From a virus (lineage: Duplodnaviria > Heunggongvirae > Uroviricota > Caudoviricetes), in IMG/VR virus record IMGVR_UViG_2582580933_000011, positions 1 through 25,865 of that record: DNA of 25,865 bases. One strand, 5' to 3'. Below are positions 1,485 through 25,865 of the stretch, one piece after another. The notes under the pieces were generated by a model. It saw nothing but the letters and a program-made list of their open reading frames with translations. It made no database searches and was not told the DNA's origin. Both the position numbers and the translations under genes were made by a program. The first letter of the stretch is position 1, and each line of letters opens with the position of its first letter.

Positions 1485-2285
1485 TTAGCGCGTTGCCGCG
1501 ACAGGTACCAGCACACCAGCATCAAGCAATCGCTTCATCAGCCACTGCTGACCTTTGCCGGTTATACGAGTCGTGAAAGAAATCCTGCTTCCATTGCTTG
1601 TATCGATCACGGTTTCTTTAAGGGTGAAATACCCACGGGATATGTATTCTTGTTTGGGGACGTTTCTGCGTTCACCGGTTGCGATCAGAATTCCGTTATC
1701 ACGCAACCAGGTGAAGAGATAGTTTTGGCCCAGGCCGAGCACTTTGGCATAGTTGCCGATTAGAACCCCGCTGGCGGTAGCAACGCGTTCGGCGAATTCG
1801 ACTTTAGGTGCATCCATCAGCATTTTTTGCTCCAGCCGTTGCTTTTGCTCTGCCAGGTCAGCAGCCAAACGGAGAGCTTCTGGGAGGCTCTTCGGAATAG
1901 CAGGTTGTAATCTTCCAGCTCGATAGTCGATAAATGTCTGGTTTACCTTCAGCCGAAACGCGGGAGAAATCCAACCAGCGTACTCCACTGCGAGCAATTC
2001 ATGGGCAAAAGTGCCGCCGCCACGGCCTTCGAACGAAACTATGCAATTCTGCATAGTTTCTTTTTCAAGCTCTTCGATGAGCTGTTTGGCTGACAGCGTT
2101 CTTAGCCATTGAGCTGGCGCTTTATGGGCACCGAGTCCGCTCGCTCTGTGTAGAGCATTAAGGTTATAACGGCCAGCGCGGTCGGTCGTAATTTCAACAC
2201 CACAAATAACAGGCAGGGTGGTTGAAGGATCGACATTTTGATGAAGGTTTGATATATTCATATCCGCATTGAATGTTTGTTGCAT
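1485..2285 (-). CDS. kilA: KilA protein (KilA-N domain + C-terminal KilAC antirepressor-type domain)
   Basis: 266 aa. N-terminal KilA-N signature (RYNLNALHRASG ... FEGRGGGTFAHELLAVEYAGWISPAF). C-terminal region (LPEALRLAADLAEQK ... GNYAKVLGL ... TGKGQQWLMKRLLDAG) is about 65% identical to the C-terminus of the adjacent Ant ORF. GGAG 7-8 nt upstream of the ATG at 2285. Confidence 0.8.
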   Translation of the reverse strand: MQQTFNADMNISNLHQNVDPSTTLPVICGVEITTDRAGRYNLNALHRASGLGAHKAPAQWLRTLSAKQLIEELEKETMQNCIVSFEGRGGGTFAHELLAVEYAGWISPAFRLKVNQTFIDYRAGRLQPAIPKSLPEALRLAADLAEQKQRLEQKMLMDAPKVEFAERVATASGVLIGNYAKVLGLGQNYLFTWLRDNGILIATGERRNVPKQEYISRGYFTLKETVIDTSNGSRISFTTRITGKGQQWLMKRLLDAGVLVPVAATR

Positions 2286-2449: not shown

Positions 2450-3493
2450 TTAACCTATTGCTACTGGTTTTAACAAACCAGCATCAAGTAGCTTGCGAGT
2501 TAACCACTGCTGGCCTTTACCCGTTAATTGGGGCGTCAGCCGTATCTGGTAGCCATTTTCATCATCCAGCACCACTTCTTTCACCGTGAAATACCCGGCG
2601 TTAATGTACTGCTGGCGCGGTACGTTTTTGCGCGCACCAAAAGCCATGAGAATGCCGTTCTGGCGCAACCATGAGAAAAGGGCGTTTTGCTTAAGTCCAA
2701 CGACCTTTGCAAAGTTCCCGATCAGGATTCCATTGGCCACTGATACCCGGTCGGCAAAATCGACTTTAGGGGCTGCGGCCACCAGCTGTTGTTCCAGCTG
2801 CATTTTCTGTTCTGCCAACTCGGCAGCCAGGCGTAGAGCTTCTGGTAATGTTTGGGGGATCGATGGGGCAGGGGAGTTTGCCTGCTGCAATTCTTCCAGT
2901 TTGTCGATCAGCGAACGGCGGACGGCTTTTGATTCGCGTGCGGCGACTCGCAGGGCTTGTTTGTAGGTCATGGTTATGACAACCATAGGCGTACCGCCAC
3001 CTGGCGGCACGGTTGCACTTTTTGTGTAACCGTCCTCACCTTCTAATTCGTCGAGTATTTTTTCGATGAATTTGTTGTTCCGAACCTCTGGTTCCCCACA
3101 TAACTTACGCGCTTCATTGACCATCTTTAACAGTGTCAGGCTGTCGATTGTGTCTCCGGTGTTGGGGATGATATTCACGGCTGGTGCTGGCGTAGCTGAC
3201 GTAACAGGTGCTGTTTTTTCAACATTCAAATTATTACCGGTCATTCTATGTGCCTCCTTTCTCATTTCTGCTGCCACTGTTGCGTAACGTAGACGTCCTT
3301 GTTCAATCAAATAATCCCTGATCTCGGCTATCAGTAGCTTGTTGATCACAGCCTTATCTGTTCGGGTATAAAAACGTCTGGTTATCATGAAATAGTTGGC
3401 AATTGCGCCGGGGATCTCCCGTGTCGGCATACAGGCAGTGTGCAGGGCGATCGCTTCGGCTATGTCATTACGGGTGACGAGAGGTTTTTTCAT
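2450..3493 (-). CDS. ant1: antirepressor Ant1 (347 aa) with an in-frame internal start giving Ant2 (264 aa); C-terminal KilAC domain
   Basis: KilAC-type C-terminus (LPEALRLAAELAEQK ... GNFAKVVGL ... TGKGQQWLTRKLLDAG). Internal ATG at 3242-3244 is preceded by AGGAGG (plus 3253-3258) at 8-nt spacing. The ATG at 3491-3493 overlaps the stop of the upstream icd-like ORF (ATGA). Matches the P1 immI ant1/ant2 arrangement. Confidence 0.85.
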   Translation of the reverse strand: MKKPLVTRNDIAEAIALHTACMPTREIPGAIANYFMITRRFYTRTDKAVINKLLIAEIRDYLIEQGRLRYATVAAEMRKEAHRMTGNNLNVEKTAPVTSATPAPAVNIIPNTGDTIDSLTLLKMVNEARKLCGEPEVRNNKFIEKILDELEGEDGYTKSATVPPGGGTPMVVITMTYKQALRVAARESKAVRRSLIDKLEELQQANSPAPSIPQTLPEALRLAAELAEQKMQLEQQLVAAAPKVDFADRVSVANGILIGNFAKVVGLKQNALFSWLRQNGILMAFGARKNVPRQQYINAGYFTVKEVVLDDENGYQIRLTPQLTGKGQQWLTRKLLDAGLLKPVAIG

Positions 3494-3711
3494 AAACCCC
3501 CCTGAACGTCGGCAGAGAAGGGGAGGCTCCAGTAACTAAGTGAATTGCGCGAGTTAGTTGAAAAACGGGCAGTAAAAATGCAGGGGCCGTCAGGCAATTG
3601 AGAGCGTGCTTCGTCTTCTGTTGCTGCGATAACGAAGTGATAGTGGTGTTTTTTACAGGAATAGAAACGCCAGATGAATTCTTGGCGTGCGCAAGGATTG
3701 GCATTAACCAT
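3490..3711 (-). CDS. icd: Icd-like small protein (73 aa), translationally coupled to ant
   Basis: 73-codon ORF whose stop overlaps the ant1 start. GAGG 9 nt upstream of the ATG at 3709-3711, and that SD lies inside a sequence complementary to an upstream element (see c4-like feature). Identification is by position and length relative to P1 immI; the sequence itself was not independently recognised. Confidence 0.5.
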   Translation of the reverse strand: MVNANPCARQEFIWRFYSCKKHHYHFVIAATEDEARSQLPDGPCIFTARFSTNSRNSLSYWSLPFSADVQGGL

Positions 3712-3764
3712 AGTTACGGCCTCACAATCAGGTTTAACAACCTGCTACCCGCTGTCAAACAGGT

Positions 3765-3860
3765 GGCAGGACGTGACAGGGTTGACAGACTGGCGATTGT
3801 GAAACCAGCAGGCCGAAGCCTCCCCATCACGCCCCACCATAATTTGGGCGTAACGCGGTT
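3765..3860 (-). ncRNA. candidate c4-like antisense repressor RNA (approximate bounds)
   Basis: The central element 3781-3802 (plus gttgacagactggcgattgtga) is the inverted complement of motifs at 3722-3760 (CACAATCA ... CTGTCAAAC, overlapping the icd SD) and 3907-3929 (CACAATCA ... CTGTCAAAC). This is the a1/b1 - a'/b' - a2/b2 layout described for P1/P7 c4. Ends of the RNA cannot be fixed from sequence alone. Confidence 0.4.
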
Positions 3861-4025
3861 TAACGGACACAAAAATACCGCAATATCGGAAATCTGCGGT
3901 TGTCCGCACAATCATTCAGGCTGTCAAACCTGGTCGCAGAATTTGCTACGACGGCGGAACTATAAGCCTGAACGATTAAAAGGTCAATATGATGCGAAAA
4001 GATAGCATTCGTGACTTAAAAATAC

Positions 4026-4042
4026 AAATTTATTAGAGCATT
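4026..4042 (-). promoter_or_regulatory. C1-repressor operator-like 17-mer (Op51-like) upstream of the immI transcription unit
   Basis: Minus strand reads AATGCTCTAATAAATTT, 16/17 to the consensus ATTGCTCTAATAAATTT. The flanking sequence is also shared with the kilA site (plus 2343-2369 versus 4012-4040: ACTTA.AAAA..AAATTTATTAGAGCA). Confidence 0.6.
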
Positions 4043-4138
4043 GTTTGTTTAATAAATGCACAATTGGATCTAATAACCTCTTTTTTTTAAAGGCGAAAAT
4101 ATGTACCCTAAATGAGTTATAAGGCAGGTGAGGTTATA

Positions 4139-4630
4139 ATGAGAAAACTATTACTACCGTTATTATTTATGGCTGGGACTGTTAATGCAGCATCAAGCGT
4201 AAAGGAGATTTGTACCGATTATACGAAATACCTTGGGCACGTTTACGGATTTGCTGTCAGTGAAGACGAATCCATGCGCAAGAAGTTACTGTCAGATATG
4301 AAGCGCCTTAAACTTTCTGAAGCGATGGTGCAGCAGGAACTGTATAAAGTCTCAACCAACGCAAATGCTAAATACCAATATTCTCGCCTATTAAACCCCG
4401 ATGCAAATGAGATCAATCGAAGCACTTTCGATTATATGGTAAAGGCATGCGAAACCGCTCCTGATTTTGCTATCCCTAGCTGGGGTGTGCTGGTGGCGAG
4501 CAATGCCGTTAATAAAGAAGATGTTGGAAGAAATGGCATTGACTCAATCAGAAATGCCCCAGGAATGCGCCATCAAAACGTGCAGGGTACGCTTGAAGAA
4601 CGAGCCAGGGGGCCGGGTGTAGCTCCATAA
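4139..4630 (+). CDS. secreted (signal-peptide) protein with a C-terminal motif shared with the Sit protein
   Basis: ORF track 4112..4630. The likely start at ATG 4139 has GGTGAGG upstream and gives MRKLLLPLLFMAGTVNA|ASS, a signal peptide with an AxA-type cleavage site and no lipobox Cys. C-terminus NGIDSIRNAPGMRHQNVQGTLEERARGPG matches Sit segments. The body of the gene is AT-rich, the 3' end GC-richer. Confidence 0.6.
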   Translation: MRKLLLPLLFMAGTVNAASSVKEICTDYTKYLGHVYGFAVSEDESMRKKLLSDMKRLKLSEAMVQQELYKVSTNANAKYQYSRLLNPDANEINRSTFDYMVKACETAPDFAIPSWGVLVASNAVNKEDVGRNGIDSIRNAPGMRHQNVQGTLEERARGPGVAP

Positions 4631-14680: not shown

Positions 14681-15115
14681 ATGTCTGACGTCTCAACAAA
14701 CCTCTATAAGAGTCAGTTGTTGGACTATTACTATCAGCGGCGCGCTGAATCGTCCATTAACAAAGGCTCTCGATTTTTAATCAGCAAGGCCGTTTTCGGT
14801 ACCAGTTCACTGGTTACTAAGAAAGGAGATGGCACTTATGAGATTGGAGAACTGCCAAAGGCTTTCGATCTGGCAGAACTGACCAGTCAATTTTGCACCA
14901 TCAACCTCGTCCCAACCTACTCAGGCGGGATAATTACTGTCCGAATGGACCTTGATCAAAGCCAGTTGCAGGAAGGGAAAAACTACCCATTCAACACTCT
15001 GGTTGTTCTGGATAACGAGAACAAGCCAATCGCCATTATTTGTGTCCAGGAAGACTCGCTGTATGTGGGCAAAACATATACCGCAGTTATGGCCATAAAC
15101 ACGACAACAGCATAA
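14681..15115 (+). CDS. R-like protein, first gene of the tail fibre unit (144 aa)
   Basis: ORF with AGGGAAAA upstream of the ATG. It precedes the fibre gene as gene R does in the P1 R-S-U operon (as recalled). Confidence 0.55.
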
Positions 15116-15126
15116 GGATATGCTTG

Positions 15127-17583
15127 ATGAATGACGTTACAGTTGTTACATCAGTTACTTACCCATCACCCGAGTCGTTGGCTCTGGTGGCTGATGTGCA
15201 ATACCACGAACCATATCTGTCAGCCGCGCTAAACCGAAAATTCAGGGGGATTGTTGACCCGGGATTTTATGCCGGTTTCTTACCTAAGCCTGGCGGTGGG
15301 ATGAACCTGTTAATCACCTCTGTGGATGGTGATAAAACTGCTGGCGCAGCGTCAGTGGATATTGGTGAATTCTACCAGGTAACTATTCAGCATCGTAAGG
15401 ATATTTCTCTTGCACTTAGCGCCGGTAAGAAATATGCAATTGTGCTGAAGGGAAGATACCTCCTTGGAGAGGATACCTATCAGGTTAATACCGCGTCACA
15501 TATTCATGCGGCTGAATTTGTTACCAGAACCTATACCGATTCATATCAGTTAGGAGATGGGGAGCTGCTTGTTTGTACGGTGAATATCCCTGCTGGCGTA
15601 TCAGCCATTACCCAGGAGATGATTGATACATCCGAGCGTATTAACCGCACGATCGGCATTGATATTTCAGACTCTGTAACCAGTAGCAGAAGTGATGTTG
15701 CTGCAAGTTCGCTGGCAGTTAAAAAAGCCTACGATCTGGCGAAAAGCAAGTATACGGCGCAGGATGCAAGCACAACGCAAAAGGGATTAGTTCAGCTCAG
15801 TAGCGAAACTAACAGCGATAGCGAAACAATGGCGGCTACCCCTAAAGCCGTTAAGTCTGTAAAAGATCTTGCTGATACCAAAGCGCCAATAGAAAGCCCG
15901 AGTCTGACAGGAACGCCAACCGCGCCGACGGCGGCGCAAGGTACAAACAGCACACAGATCGCAAATACAGCCTTTGTTAAGGCAGCTATAACTGCACTTA
16001 TCAACGGTGCACCTGGCACACTGGATACACTTAAAGAAATAGCTGCTGCGATCAATAACGACCCGAATTTCAGCACAACTATCAACAATGCTCTGGCCCT
16101 TAAAGCGCCTTTAGCAAGTCCTGCATTAACGGGAATACCTACTGCGCCTACCGCTGCACAGGGTACGAATAACACGCAGATTGCTACGACCGCTTATGTA
16201 AGAGCTGCCATATCCGCATTGGTTGGTTCATCACCAGAAGCTCTTGATACCCTGAATGAGCTTGCCGCAGCACTTGGCAATGACCCGAACTTTGCGACAA
16301 CAATGACAAATGCGCTGGCAGGTAAACAGCCTCTGGATGCAACTTTAACCGCTCTCGCTGCCCTTGCGACTGGTGCAAACAAACTGCCTTATTTCACTGG
16401 TAAGGATACGGTAGCTCAGACTGATTTAACGTCAGTCGGTCGCGATATTCTGGCTAAAACAAGCACACTGGCCGTTATCCAATACCTTGGTTTAAGAGAA
16501 CTCGGAACAAGCGGTGAAAAGATCCCCCTGTTGAGCACGGCTAACACATGGAGTGCACGCCAGACTTTCAACGGCGGGATCACCGGGGCGCTGACAGGGA
16601 ACGCCGATACCGCGACGAAATTGAAAACAGCCAGAAACATTAATGGCGTCAGGTTCGATGGTTCTACGAACATTTCGATACCAACAATTACGTCTAGAGG
16701 ACGCGTTACTGCGCTTACCGGTACAACGCAAGGTGCTGCTACTGGATTGCAGATGTATGAGGCATACAACAATGGCTACCCAACAGCTTATGGTAATGTG
16801 CTTCATCTCACTGGTGCAGCCGCAGTAGGAGAGGGTGAATTACTTATTGGCTGGAGTGGAACCAGCGGCGCTCATGCTCCTGCGTATATTCGTTCGCGGC
16901 GGGATACGACCGACGCAAACTGGTCGCCGTGGGCGCAGCTTTACACGTCGGCCCATCCTCCGGCAGAGTTTTATCCAGTCGGCGCCCCAATCCCGTGGCC
17001 TTCTGATGTAGTACCTACAGGTTATGCTATTATGCAGGGGCAAACTTTTGATAAGTCTGCATACCCAAAACTTGCAGTAGCGTATCCATCTGGTGTGATC
17101 CCTGATATGCGTGGCTGGACAATCAAGGGCAAACCCGCCAGTGGTCGTGCTGTATTGTCTCAGGAACAGGACGGTATTAAATCGCACACCCACAGCGCAA
17201 GTGCATCAAGTACTGATTTGGGAACGAAAACAACCAGTTCGTTTGATTACGGGACAAAAACAGTCAGCACGTTTAACCACGGCACAAAAACAACAAACAA
17301 TACAGGAGCGCATACGCACACTGTCGGTGGTCGCTATGGTGGTGACTCCATCGGGAGTAAACAACGCGTACAGGTATCAGGAACCAACCAGGTGTCAAGC
17401 TCTGCCGGAGCACATGCCCATACTGTCGATATTGGTCAGCATAACCACACCGTAGGTATTGGTGCCCATGCACACACTTTGGCATTGGGTGCGCACGGAC
17501 ATACCATCACGGTTAACGCTACTGGTAATGCGGAAAACACCGTAAAAAACATTGCATATAACTATATTGTGAGACTTGCATGA
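15127..17583 (+). CDS. tail fibre protein (S-like), 818 aa
   Basis: Start chosen at ATG 15127 (AAGGA 8 nt upstream; the 15040 start would overlap the R-like gene). Two tandem phage-fibre repeats ([28 protein letters not shown]... and [28 protein letters not shown]...). C-terminal His-box repeats [33 protein letters not shown]. Confidence 0.85.
15895..16330 (+). repeat. intragenic tandem repeat (two approx 65-codon phage tail-fibre repeat units) within the fibre gene
   Basis: Protein-level repeat. The two DNA copies are diverged, so this is an ancient structural repeat, not a recent duplication. Confidence 0.6.
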
Positions 17584-18449
17584 TTAATTTAATTCTTTCA
17601 GCACCAGTACCTGAAATGGCTGAGGCATTTAAGCGGGTATTTGCAAATGCAGATAATGTGAATATTGTCGGTCAACCATTTGAAACAATCAGAGAATTTG
17701 ACTGCATGGTCAGTGCGGCAAACAGTTTCGGGCTAATGGATGGCGGCGTTGACGCTGCCATTACTGCATTCTTTGGTACTCAGTTACAGACACGTGTTCA
17801 GAATCATATTCTTCGTGAATATCTTGGTGAGCAGCCTGTAGGCACTGCATTTGTTATTGAAACGGGGGATAACAACCATCCCTGGCTGGTACATGCGCCA
17901 ACAATGCGCGTTCCGCTGACCATTGACGGAACAGACGCTGTATATAACGCCACGTGGGCCGCTCTGCTTGCCATCTTTCAGCACAATAAAAATGCAACGA
18001 CAGACAGGAAAATAAAAACGGTGGTATTACCTGCAATGGGGGCCGGATGTGGTCAGGTGCCGTTTGAAAGTGTTACCCGGCAGATGAAGCTGGCATGGGA
18101 TAATTTTAATAAAAAAACAGAATCAATTAACTGGGAATATGCATATTCCCGCCAGTGGGCGGTATTTAACACATGTGCATACTGCCCCGGTAAATCTGGT
18201 TGTCGTTATGCTGATATTAAATATATTGGATGTGGCGATTACCGTACGTATTGCTTACGGTCAGGGCAGGTATGTATTAACCCTGAACATCAGGTTGATG
18301 ACGTGCTGACTAATAATCGCTCTCGCCCGGGAGCACATATACACCAGATTAATCCGGTAAAACCCGTAGGTAACGTTACCATTGGCGCACACAGCCACGG
18401 AAGGAATATCACCATTGGTGCTCATTCCCATACAACCAATAAACAATAA
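17580..18449 (+). CDS. macro-domain protein with Cys-rich linker and C-terminal tail-fibre-tip-like His-box repeats
   Basis: 289 aa. Start overlaps the fibre stop (ATGA at 17580-17583). Macro-domain motifs: [67 protein letters not shown] (compare E. coli YmdB VDVIVNAAN..GGGGVDGAIHRAAG, HTVGP, VAFPAISTGVYG). C-terminus [24 protein letters not shown] resembles the fibre tip. Confidence 0.8.
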
Positions 18450-19110: not shown

Positions 19111-20259
19111 TTATCTAAACCAATTTTCTAGAACATTTTCAAATTTATGGGTAACTTGCCACCATAAATAGTTCTCTAATACATATTTTTTTCCGTTATT
19201 TGCAATTTGTTCTAATTTTTCGGAATGTAATGTTTCATATATATCACTAGCTAAACTTTCTGGCAACATTGGTTCATTTATATGAAATCCTGTATGGTTA
19301 TTTTTTACAAATTCAACCATTCCACCTCGAGTGCTAACTAAAACGGGTCTTCCTGCCCCCATAGCTTCTATAGCAACCATGCAGAACGGTTCTTGAAACT
19401 GAGATGGGATTACAACTAGATCGGCTATAGGATAGTAACGGTACATATCATCTGGTTTTACCCCGCCAACAAGATGACAGCGCGAACCAATAGTTCCAGC
19501 AAGTTCCCTTACTTGTTTTTGATATGCAGCTTTTTCTCCTTTATCTTTATTATTGTAGTCACCAACAACTACAAGTTCTATATTGTCACATGATTTTATC
19601 AATTTTTTAAACGCTTGTAATAGTAAAACAGTCCCTTTTTCAGGGGAGATCCTTCCCGCATAAAAGATAACTTTTTTCTCAGAGGGAATACCTAAATCTT
19701 GTTTTGTTAGCGGGGGTAGTTCTTTATCTAGATTGTGTAGTTCTGTACCATTAGGAACTATACAAATTTCAGCGTCAGGAAGATGTTTTTCATAAAAATC
19801 CTTTAAATACTGACTTGGAACAAGCATTTTCACATTGCTATCTAGCCCTTTCGGTGTAAAGGCATTATGCATATGCATTATCATTTTTGCGTCAGGAGCT
19901 TTCTCTCTAATTTGACGATAAAGTTTCATGCTGTTATGAACAATAATAATGCTATCGTTTGTGATATTGAAATCTTTAGCAATGTTTAACACTCTTTGTG
20001 AATATGGAATAGGATCTATTCTGCTCCATTTTTGAAATATCCGTTTATAAAGACGGCTAAACCCTATTCTATGGATAGAACATCGCTCATTAACAATATC
20101 TTTTTCTGAGAAACCATCCTCTCGAATGCATGCTATACGATTTGGTATTCTTGTTCTCTTTGCGACTTGATATATCCAAGTTTCAACAGCTGCTGCGCCA
20201 CGAGGTGGTATTGAAAATATTGGTGTAACTGTAAATATTAATTTGTCAATCATGAGCAA
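19111..20259 (-). CDS. glycosyltransferase, GT-B fold (GT4/RfaG-like family)
   Basis: 382 aa. C-terminal GT4 signature (VVVGDYNNK ... FCMVAIEAMGAGRPVLVSTRGGMVEFV). Very AT-rich. Start overlaps the acetyltransferase gene by 14 nt. Confidence 0.8.
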   Translation of the reverse strand: MLMIDKLIFTVTPIFSIPPRGAAAVETWIYQVAKRTRIPNRIACIREDGFSEKDIVNERCSIHRIGFSRLYKRIFQKWSRIDPIPYSQRVLNIAKDFNITNDSIIIVHNSMKLYRQIREKAPDAKMIMHMHNAFTPKGLDSNVKMLVPSQYLKDFYEKHLPDAEICIVPNGTELHNLDKELPPLTKQDLGIPSEKKVIFYAGRISPEKGTVLLLQAFKKLIKSCDNIELVVVGDYNNKDKGEKAAYQKQVRELAGTIGSRCHLVGGVKPDDMYRYYPIADLVVIPSQFQEPFCMVAIEAMGAGRPVLVSTRGGMVEFVKNNHTGFHINEPMLPESLASDIYETLHSEKLEQIANNGKKYVLENYLWWQVTHKFENVLENWFR

Positions 20260-20797
20260 CTATCCTCTTATAATCTTTTCCCTTTAAATATTTTTTTAGG
20301 GTTGCAGGAGAGCCTGCATACATTGTATTAGCAGGAACATCAGTATTTACAACGCTATTTGCAGCTATAACACTATTGTCTCCTATTTTTACACCTGGTA
20401 GCACAGTTGTATTTGCCCCAATCCAAACATTACGGCCTATTTTTATTGGAGCGCAAATTGTTTCTTTGGGACGTTTGCTTGGTGTTAGTGGATGCGTGAC
20501 AGTTGTTAATACAACGTTGGGACCAATGGCAGAGTTACATCCAATATCTATTGTTTTTGCATCGAGAAAAACACAATTTGCGTTAATGAAGACATTTTTA
20601 TCAATAATTATATTGCCATTCTCAAAATAAAATGGAGCTGTTATTGTTGAGTCTTCACTTACTTTAACTCCTGTTTTTTTTAATGTGATTAATTTTTTTC
20701 TTTTTGAGATTAGGGTATAATTAAATATATGTCTTGCTTTCTTTGCTTTCTTTTTTTGAAAAATTATATAGAAATAATATGTTAACAAATCAAACAT
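20246..20797 (-). CDS. hexapeptide-repeat (left-handed beta-helix) sugar O-acetyltransferase-like protein
   Basis: 183 aa with tandem hexapeptide repeats (VFINANCVFLDAKTIDIGCNSAIGPNVVL ... VWIGANTTVLPGVKIGDNSVIAANSVV) as in maltose/galactoside/WcaB-type acetyltransferases. AT-rich. The true start may be internal. Confidence 0.75.
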   Translation of the reverse strand: MFDLLTYYFYIIFQKKKAKKARHIFNYTLISKRKKLITLKKTGVKVSEDSTITAPFYFENGNIIIDKNVFINANCVFLDAKTIDIGCNSAIGPNVVLTTVTHPLTPSKRPKETICAPIKIGRNVWIGANTTVLPGVKIGDNSVIAANSVVNTDVPANTMYAGSPATLKKYLKGKDYKRIVAHD

Positions 20798-24920: not shown

Positions 24921-25865
24921 CATCCTCCACGCCCCGAAGGGCGTGGATTCCTGCTACGTTCAGGCTGTCGCCTGAATCATTTCGGTGGGTTCCTGCTTCA
25001 ACGGGCGGCCTGACTGCACCATCCCTCCACAGGCAAGTACGGCGTGCCCCGCCGCTAAAATGTTACGAGCGCCGTTTACATCGGCGTTCGCTGTATATCC
25101 ACATACCTGGCATCTGAATTTACTTTGTGACAGGCGATTTTCTTTCGCTGTATGACCACAGCACGCGCAACGCTGGCTTGTGTACGCTGGCGGAACAGCA
25201 AGCACCTGACCGCCACGCCAGAGCTGCTTGTACTCAAGCTGGCGGCGCATTTCATACCAGCCCTGATCCAGTATCGAACGGTTTAAACCTGATTTTGCCC
25301 GGACATTGCGACCCGGATGACTTATCGTTCCCGCCGCTGACTTTGACATGTATTTAACCTTCAAATCCTCAATGACAATCATTGCGTGGTTTTTGCTGAC
25401 GGTCGTTGTGACTTTGTGAAGGTAGTCCCTGCGGATATTTGCGATACGGGAATGCAGTCGCTGTATTTTGCGTTTCTGCTTCTGCCAGTTGTTGCTGAAT
25501 TTGACCTTGCGGCTTAACTGTCGCTGAAGTCTCGCCAGCTTCTTCTGGTTTTTCTGAAAACTATTTACAGGTTCAAAGACTGTGCCATCTGACAGCGTGG
25601 CGAGTTTAGCCACGCCAGCATCCAGTCCGACCATTGATGCTGAAGGGTGAACAGGAGTGGATACCTCTCTTTCTGTCTGAATACTGATGTACCACTTACC
25701 GCAGGACTGGCTGACAGTAACATTTTTCACAATACCCGTGACCTGACGGCTATTCCGGTAGCGCATCCAGCCAAGTTTCGGCAGAAAAATACGGCTGTTT
25801 TCCTGATCGAGCTTAACACCCTGCGGGTAGCGGAATGCATCATTCTGTCCCCGCTTTTTGAATCG
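24921..25865 (-). mobile_element. IS200/IS605-family insertion sequence, right end plus tnpB (continues beyond the window)
   Basis: TnpB ORF plus a subterminal GC-rich hairpin (CCACGCCC cgaa GGGCGTGG, 24927-24946) directly after the tnpB stop and abutting the stop codon of the upstream phage gene. Confidence 0.75.
24960..25865 (-). CDS. tnpB: TnpB (IS605 OrfB-type RuvC-like nuclease with C-terminal zinc finger); N-terminus lies beyond window end
   Basis: Manual extension of the frame to the window edge gives ...[64 protein letters not shown]..., the conserved central TnpB region. C-terminal CxxC...CxxC ([37 protein letters not shown]). Confidence 0.9.

Follow-up and report, generated by a model that had tools for sequence, protein, structure and literature searches.

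We found that a 25,865-nt stretch of viral DNA (hereafter, the window) comes from a P1-like phage-plasmid and contains its immI immunity operon, with a c4 antisense-RNA switch. We put the probability of this reading at roughly 95%, and nothing in the sequence speaks against it. The homology, structure, complementarity, covariation, and gene layout on which it rests were all observed directly, in the window or, for the covariation, among its natural relatives. The c4 switch is an already known, textbook system, and this copy is distinguished only by its mix of elements: it has a P1-type a element and a P7-type b element. What our analysis adds is limited to the allele typing of this copy and to the covariation at the population level.

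Whether or not the anti-repressor (Ant) is produced depends on the c4 switch, and so, in turn, does the lysogenic state of a P1-type plasmid prophage. The switch also determines the related phages that are able to superinfect. Typing of a and b gives a simple sequence read-out of the predicted immI immunity classes of P1-like plasmids that carry resistance genes. The "intergenic" stretch that is unlabelled in RefSeq is a known regulatory RNA together with its targets; the c4 RNA is absent from the annotations of RefSeq plasmids whose leader is 100% identical to this one.

The immI region and its parts

An earlier sequence-only reading of this DNA had described a central element that is complementary to paired motifs on both sides of it, and these positions hold to within 1 nt (the downstream range was said to start at 3722 and actually starts at 3723). 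On the plus strand, the downstream pair is CACAATCA at 3723-3730 and CTGTCAAAC at 3752-3760. The upstream pair is CACAATCA at 3907-3914, a 6-nt spacer, and CTGTCAAAC at 3921-3929. The central element, with GTTGACAG at 3781-3788 and GATTGTGA at 3795-3802, is the reverse complement of both motifs. CACAATCA followed by CTGTCAAAC at a distance of 0-30 nt occurs exactly twice in the window, and was absent from 100 dinucleotide-preserving shuffles. A repeat finder gave 100% complementarity between the arms at 3722-3729 and 3795-3802, and it recovered the direct copies too.

Read on the minus strand, b2 is GAUUGUGAGG, and its GAGG lies 8 nt upstream of the ATG of icd (3711..3709), so the claim that the downstream copy overlaps the Shine-Dalgarno sequence of icd was correct. 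The three-part layout of P1 and P7 c4 had also been proposed, and the c4, a1, b1, a2, and b2 that are annotated in P1 do transfer to the window one-to-one. The extent that had been given for the feature, 3712-3930, needs to be widened: the elements are there, but the functional unit is larger, and on the minus strand takes in everything from the C1 operator (4042) through icd and ant. More broadly, the P1 record annotates Oc4, P2c4, P1c4, a1, b1, the 77-nt c4, a2, b2, icd, and ant1/ant2, and all of these transfer by alignment (Table 1).

Table 1. Features of the immI region, in the order of the minus-strand transcript. Positions are those of the window.
Feature	Position	Strand	Basis or remark
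C1 repressor operator Oc4 (formerly Op51), AATGCTCTAATAAATTT	4026..4042	-	17-mer identical to the P1 operator, at the same place
Promoter P2c4 (formerly P51a)	3999..4028	-	-35 at 4028..4022, -10 at 4004..3999; transferred from P1 by alignment
Promoter P1c4 (formerly P51b), TTGACC-17 nt-TATAGT	3959..3987	-	Promoter scan, 10/12 matches; position is that of P1
c4-a1b1 leader element, two hairpins with a1 in the loop of the second	3913..3965	-	RF03163
a1 (UUGACAG), upstream site complementary to a'	3921..3927	-	Sequence and covariation
b1 (GAUUGUG), upstream site complementary to b'	3907..3913	-	Sequence and covariation
Predicted mature c4 antisense RNA, 77 nt (GGUGGGG...GCCACC)	3762..3838	-	Ends from the P1/P7 misc_RNA annotations
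b' (UCACAAUC), 9-nt hairpin loop of c4, P7-type allele	3795..3802	-	Fold and allele typing
a' (CUGUCAA), single-stranded junction of c4, P1-type allele	3782..3788	-	Fold and allele typing
a2 (UUGACAG), downstream target of a'	3752..3758	-	Covariation; position is that of the P1 misc_binding a2
b2 (GAUUGUGA) plus GG, target of b'; contains the icd Shine-Dalgarno GAGG (3723..3720)	3720..3729	-	P1 misc_binding b2
icd, 73-aa cell-division inhibitor, first c4-controlled gene	3490..3711	-	NF033153
ant1, anti-repressor, 347 aa, with in-frame ant2 start at 3244	2450..3493	-	PF03374

Oc4 is one mismatch from the operator consensus (ATTGCTCTAATAAATTT); only two such sites are present in the window, and none were found in shuffled sequences. 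The other site, TTTGCTCTAATAAATTT, is at 2355-2371 on the minus strand, upstream of kilA (1485..2285, also on the minus strand), and together with Oc4 it makes up the window's only operator-like sites. We take its position to be that of Op53 on the P1 map. Of the two promoters, P2c4 was not recovered independently by a simple promoter scan of the window.

Icd matches NCBIfam NF033153 with 52.3 bits (the cut-off is 25) and is 96% identical to Icd from P1. The product of ant1 matches the ANT/KilAC family of Pfam (PF03374, 106 bits), and the ATG of ant1 overlaps the stop codon of icd (ATGA). A methionine codon is present at the position that matches the ant2 start of P1.

Rfam matches and RNA structure

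An Rfam scan of the complete window, with the gathering scores as thresholds, gave three matches. The C4 antisense RNA (RF01695) matches at 3844..3759 on the minus strand, with 68.4 bits (gathering score 45, E = 1.4e-11), and the match covers positions 1-87 of the 87-position model. Upstream of it, the a1/b1 targets of C4 (RF03163) match at 3965..3913 on the same strand, with 56.0 bits (gathering score 46.7, E = 7e-12), and again the full model is matched (1-53 of 53). Both models score above their gathering thresholds at the places where a c4 RNA and its targets had been predicted. The third match, to the sok antisense RNA (RF01794, 301..127 on the minus strand, 109.8 bits), is unrelated to c4. 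We also considered a tRNA gene and rejected it, as an ARAGORN search of the window gave none.

At its energy minimum (-42 kcal/mol), the c4 77-mer (3838..3762) has a long closing stem and two inner hairpins. The second of these hairpins holds b' in its 9-nt loop, and a' is in the unpaired stretch that follows. The 86-nt span that matches the Rfam model folds with z = -4.6 relative to shuffles. We also folded the whole leader (3952..3690). There too the c4 domain forms by itself, and b' and a' stay unpaired. Overall, the Rfam models, the homology to P1 and P7, the fold, and the covariation among natural copies (below) support the earlier proposal of a c4-type antisense RNA upstream of icd and ant.

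Covariation among natural copies

A scan of IMG/VR for a 30-nt stretch of c4 that does not vary gave 119 loci; with the reference phages and the window, this makes 130 copies, which are limited to close relatives by the exact 30-nt seed and are not independent samples. Across the 130 copies, the a element has two alleles, the P1-type (UUGACAG/CUGUCAA) and the P7-type (UUAGCAG/CUGCUAA), while the b element has six alleles. We saw 11 of the 12 possible combinations of a and b.

Within a copy, the three sites for each element nearly always agree. Among the 116 complete copies, a1, a', and a2 are consistent in all 116, and b1, b', and b2 are consistent in 114; the other two are L006, with 2 nt inserted in b1, and L049, whose b2 is foreign.

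To quantify this, we counted the intermolecular pairings as structure on an alignment of 34 distinct leaders. For c4 with a2/b2, 99.8% of cells are paired, and all 8 of the 8 variable pairs have changed on both sides. For a1/b1 with c4, 100% of cells are paired, and again 8/8 variable pairs have changed on both sides. When the partner was slid by 1-3 columns, a control that takes sequence relatedness into account, pairing fell to 33-49% for c4 with a2/b2 and to 25-38% for a1/b1 with c4. In a shuffle control, which takes no account of relatedness, 0/500 shuffles reached the observed score in both cases. Looking at each pairing separately, the seven pairs of a':a2 are 100% paired across the variants, and both of the variable pairs are compensatory. 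The ten pairs of b':b2 are 99.7% paired, with 6 compensatory. For b1:b', 6 of 7 pairs have changed on both sides, and a1:a' covaries too, with every cell paired (100%) in the 34 leaders. (In the window itself, a':a2 is 7 bp, and b':b2 is 8 Watson-Crick pairs and 2 G.U pairs, which cover the GAGG.)

These figures are strong evidence that selection keeps all three sets of sites complementary, including a1 and b1. In particular, the strict complementarity of a1 and b1 to c4 argues that these sites, which are "putative" in the P1 annotation, are functional.

L049 (4690-4921 on the minus strand of IMGVR_UViG_2565956613_000015) is a natural recombinant leader. In b1 and b' it has the 673R5 allele (ACGAAU/AUUCGU), and in b2 the P1 allele (GUUAGU). 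The b':b2 pairing survives only via three G.U pairs and one mismatch, so this leader may have partly escaped repression, or it may be a transitional form.

The natural copies also bear on whether the region codes for a small protein instead (the historical "c4 CDS"), which could be a 56-aa ORF at 3745..3915 or a 65-aa ORF at 3714..3911, both on the minus strand. These open reading frames are present, and some database records do annotate a CDS over this stretch. But in natural variants the ORF has indels of 1 or 2 nt, and these would shift the frame: P1 and others have a 1-nt gap at alignment column 82, L123 and L089 have single-base indels, and L006 has its 2-nt insertion. Also, the substitutions form compensatory RNA pairs and are not codon-patterned, and the two covariance models account for the whole stretch. 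We give a protein next to no credence. As for existing annotations, a spurious 56-aa "hypothetical protein" lies over c4 in the phages JL22 and phi456 (window 3745-3915 on the minus strand; L004 746-916; L010 746-916; L130).

Proposed mechanism

If the c4 switch in the window works as in P1 and P7, then transcription would proceed leftward, on the minus strand, from two promoters, the upstream one of which is overlapped by the C1 operator. The order of parts along the leader is a1/b1, the c4 RNA, a2, and b2 with the Shine-Dalgarno sequence, after which come icd and ant1/ant2. Going by the homology to P1 and P7, the 77-nt c4 RNA would be cut from this transcript, with its 5' end made by RNase P. 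The b' loop and the single-stranded a' of c4 would then pair with the b2 and a2 sites of other transcripts. Once formed, the b':b2 duplex would cover the ribosome-binding site of icd, so that icd would go untranslated, no anti-repressor would be made, and C1-dependent lysogeny would be kept. (We expect no anti-repressor because the expression of ant depends on the translation of icd: the genes overlap, and in P1, there is Rho-dependent polarity.) Heinrich et al. in 1994 and Biere et al. in 1992 reportedly found that there is no expression of ant without translation of icd. Citron and Schuster are said to have shown, in 1990, that the c4 RNAs of P1 and P7 act in trans in complementation tests.

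The processing of c4, its action in trans, and the polarity on ant would thus be carried over from P1 and P7. Passages of PMC12197685 and PMC8198154, which summarise Citron and Schuster (1990), describe c4 as acting in trans on the ant mRNA, near the ribosome-binding site, and as underlying the heteroimmunity of P1 and P7. In P1 and P7, c4 is processed from the leader of its own operon, and an excerpt of PMC11143913, citing Hartmann et al. (1995), lists the precursor as a substrate of RNase P. For the repression of icd and ant in trans by P1/P7 c4, with polarity on ant, PMC8198154 and PMC10695390 cite Citron and Schuster (1990) and Heinrich et al. (1994).

The complementary elements might instead act only in cis, as alternative attenuator-like folds of the leader (a1/b1 with b'/a', or b'/a' with a2/b2), with no processed RNA that acts in trans. 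All six elements are on one transcript, so covariation alone cannot separate pairing in cis from pairing in trans. Also, in the minimum-energy fold of the whole leader, the a1 hairpin and the hairpin just before b2 are joined by a long-range helix, which the inverted repeat finder reported as well. This helix came up as a possible further regulatory element, but both of its arms are near-palindromic hairpins with similar stems. But in this same fold, the c4 domain is self-contained and b'/a' are free, and c4 has a tRNA-like acceptor stem that ends in GCCACC, while the P1/P7 precursor is a listed RNase P substrate. Furthermore, the window's c4 is only 2-3 nt away from the c4 RNAs of P1 and P7, which reportedly act in trans. 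Given this near-identity to trans-acting RNAs, we consider action in cis only to be very unlikely.

Allele class and specificity

The c4 RNA in the window belongs to a minority class. Among the 128 copies that could be typed for both a' and b', 12 (about 9%) are a(P1)+b(P7), including phage JL22. The 232-nt leader of the window is identical in an IMG/VR contig (L026), and at least 10 complete E. coli plasmid records carry a 271-nt segment at 100% identity. Some version of the leader is present in 536 of 5,426 complete E. coli genomes (about 10%).

Relative to P1 and P7, the leader changes its parental type 6 times in 232 nt, and the alleles alternate along the transcript: a1, then b1 through b', then a' through a2, then b2. 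With this many switches between alternating alleles, hybrids would have to come from several exchanges or conversions over very short stretches, with strong selection acting as a filter.

By analogy with P1 and P7, the a and b sequences would set the immunity specificity. As simple duplexes, whose energies leave out intramolecular structure and overstate absolute stability, cognate b pairings are at about -19 kcal/mol (vs. -8 to -14.5 kcal/mol for non-cognate ones), and cognate a pairings are at -12.3 kcal/mol (vs. about -7 kcal/mol). In other words, cognate duplexes are about 5-11 kcal/mol more stable. By these energies, the c4 RNA here shares one full-strength module with the targets in P1 and the other with the targets in P7. 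More broadly, the immI specificity of natural P1-like phage-plasmids might be a two-module combinatorial code, with 2 a alleles and at least six b alleles. The a(P1)+b(P7) class might then be a third immunity type, which would be partly cross-reactive, or not cross-reactive, with both P1 and P7. This proposal is tentative, and we would put it at a little under even odds.

A different explanation is that the locus looks intact but is an inactive relic in a defective plasmid prophage. The window shows just 25.9 kb of the element and includes a TnpB gene and cargo that is not from P1, and many P1-like plasmids are rearranged, according to passages in PMC6906374. However, every component of the switch is intact and complementary, the 271-nt segment recurs without change in at least 10 complete E. 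coli plasmids, and an isolated phage (JL22) has the same allele class. The conservation of the switch across these plasmids and JL22 argues for purifying selection, and we think that an inactive relic is highly improbable.

Other genes in the window

A hokD-type toxin gene (1-132) runs off the start of the window and adjoins the sok RNA (127-301 on the minus strand). The sok/hokD pair is beside repL, where P1 has rlfA/rlfB. Positions 1-595 have no match in P1 or P7 and match some P1-like plasmids.

On the other side of the c4 operator, and divergent from it, is a 172-aa ORF (4112-4630 on the plus strand) with an N-terminus that resembles a signal peptide. In P1, there is a short gene upstream of the operator, simA, while in the window, the start of the 172-aa ORF is at the same place. 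The first 57 residues are 88% identical to the simA region of P1. Only phage Ro157c2YLVW (96.5%) and Cronobacter phage JK004 (80%) have the ORF at full length. Judging by these relatives, simA of P1 seems to be what is left of the N-terminal part of a longer gene. The ORF's match to PTPlike_phytase from Pfam was below the cut-off.

A Macro-domain protein of 289 aa (17580-18449 on the plus strand; PF01661, 66.5 bits) is encoded between the large tail-fibre gene (15040..17583) and the tail-fibre assembly gene. Just past the tail-fibre genes, and on the opposite strand (19111-20797, minus), are genes for a GT4 glycosyltransferase (382 aa) and a hexapeptide-repeat acyltransferase (183 aa). In a related plasmid, the GT4 gene is annotated as an LPS N-acetylglucosaminyltransferase, and this pair of enzymes is probably surface-modifying cargo. 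Near the end of the window, a TnpB-like ORF of 268 aa (24960-25766 on the minus strand), with OrfB_IS605 and a Cas12f-like TNB domain, indicates an insertion of the IS200/IS605 family.

Comparison with known systems

The window is from a P1-like (Punavirus) phage-plasmid, and outside of the immI region, it matches Punavirus genomes and P1-like plasmids from Escherichia and Salmonella. Segment 3400-4100 is 96.4% identical to P1 (across 701 bp) and 97.7% identical to P7 (across 641 bp).

The CI RNA of satellite phage P4 works much like c4. It is a small RNA that is processed from the leader of the operon under its control, RNase P is involved, and like c4, it pairs with complementary sites both upstream and downstream of itself. 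But its sequence and its family are unrelated to c4, and it causes premature termination of transcription instead of blocking a ribosome-binding site. The Rfam scan at gathering thresholds gave no match to a P4-type model.

Phage D6, SJ46, and other P1-like or D6-like variants of c4 have the same scaffold and the same three-site layout, but with other b alleles. Written as b2/b', these other alleles are ACUUAC/GUAAGU, ACGAAU/AUUCGU, GUACAU/AUGUAC, and ACUUGU/ACAAGU, each of which occurs with either a allele. Some E. coli plasmid records have 2-5 copies of a c4-type leader (for example, NZ_CP013030 has them at 3 places), while the window has only one. The plasmids with several leaders agree with the second c4-icd region that is reported, in passages of PMC6799933, for D6-like plasmids. 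Phage JL22 (ON018986), the contig with the identical leader, and E. coli plasmids such as NZ_CP023381 are of the same a(P1)+b(P7) class as the window, with no difference in the switch. The c4 RNA is missing from the annotations inspected for them.

The immI operon of P1 (NC_005856, where c4 is P1_gr044) has the same order of operator, promoters, a1/b1, c4, a2, b2, icd, and ant. Its a element (a1, a', and a2) is identical to the window's, and the c4 scaffold outside of a' and b' is identical as well. Two nucleotides of c4 are different in P1 (positions 41 and 43 of 77), both in b', which is CACAAUC in the window and CACUAAC in P1; b1 and b2 have changed in step with b'. The immI operon of P7 (AF503408) also has the same architecture, and in this case, it is the b element (b1, b', and b2) that is identical. 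P7's c4 differs at 3 nt: a' is CUGUCAA in the window vs. CUGCUAA in P7, and position 61, in a stem, is U in the window vs. C in P7. Here, a1 and a2 have changed in step with a'. Since the c4 in the window differs from P1 in b', and from P7 in a' and the stem, it combines the a element of P1 with the b element of P7.
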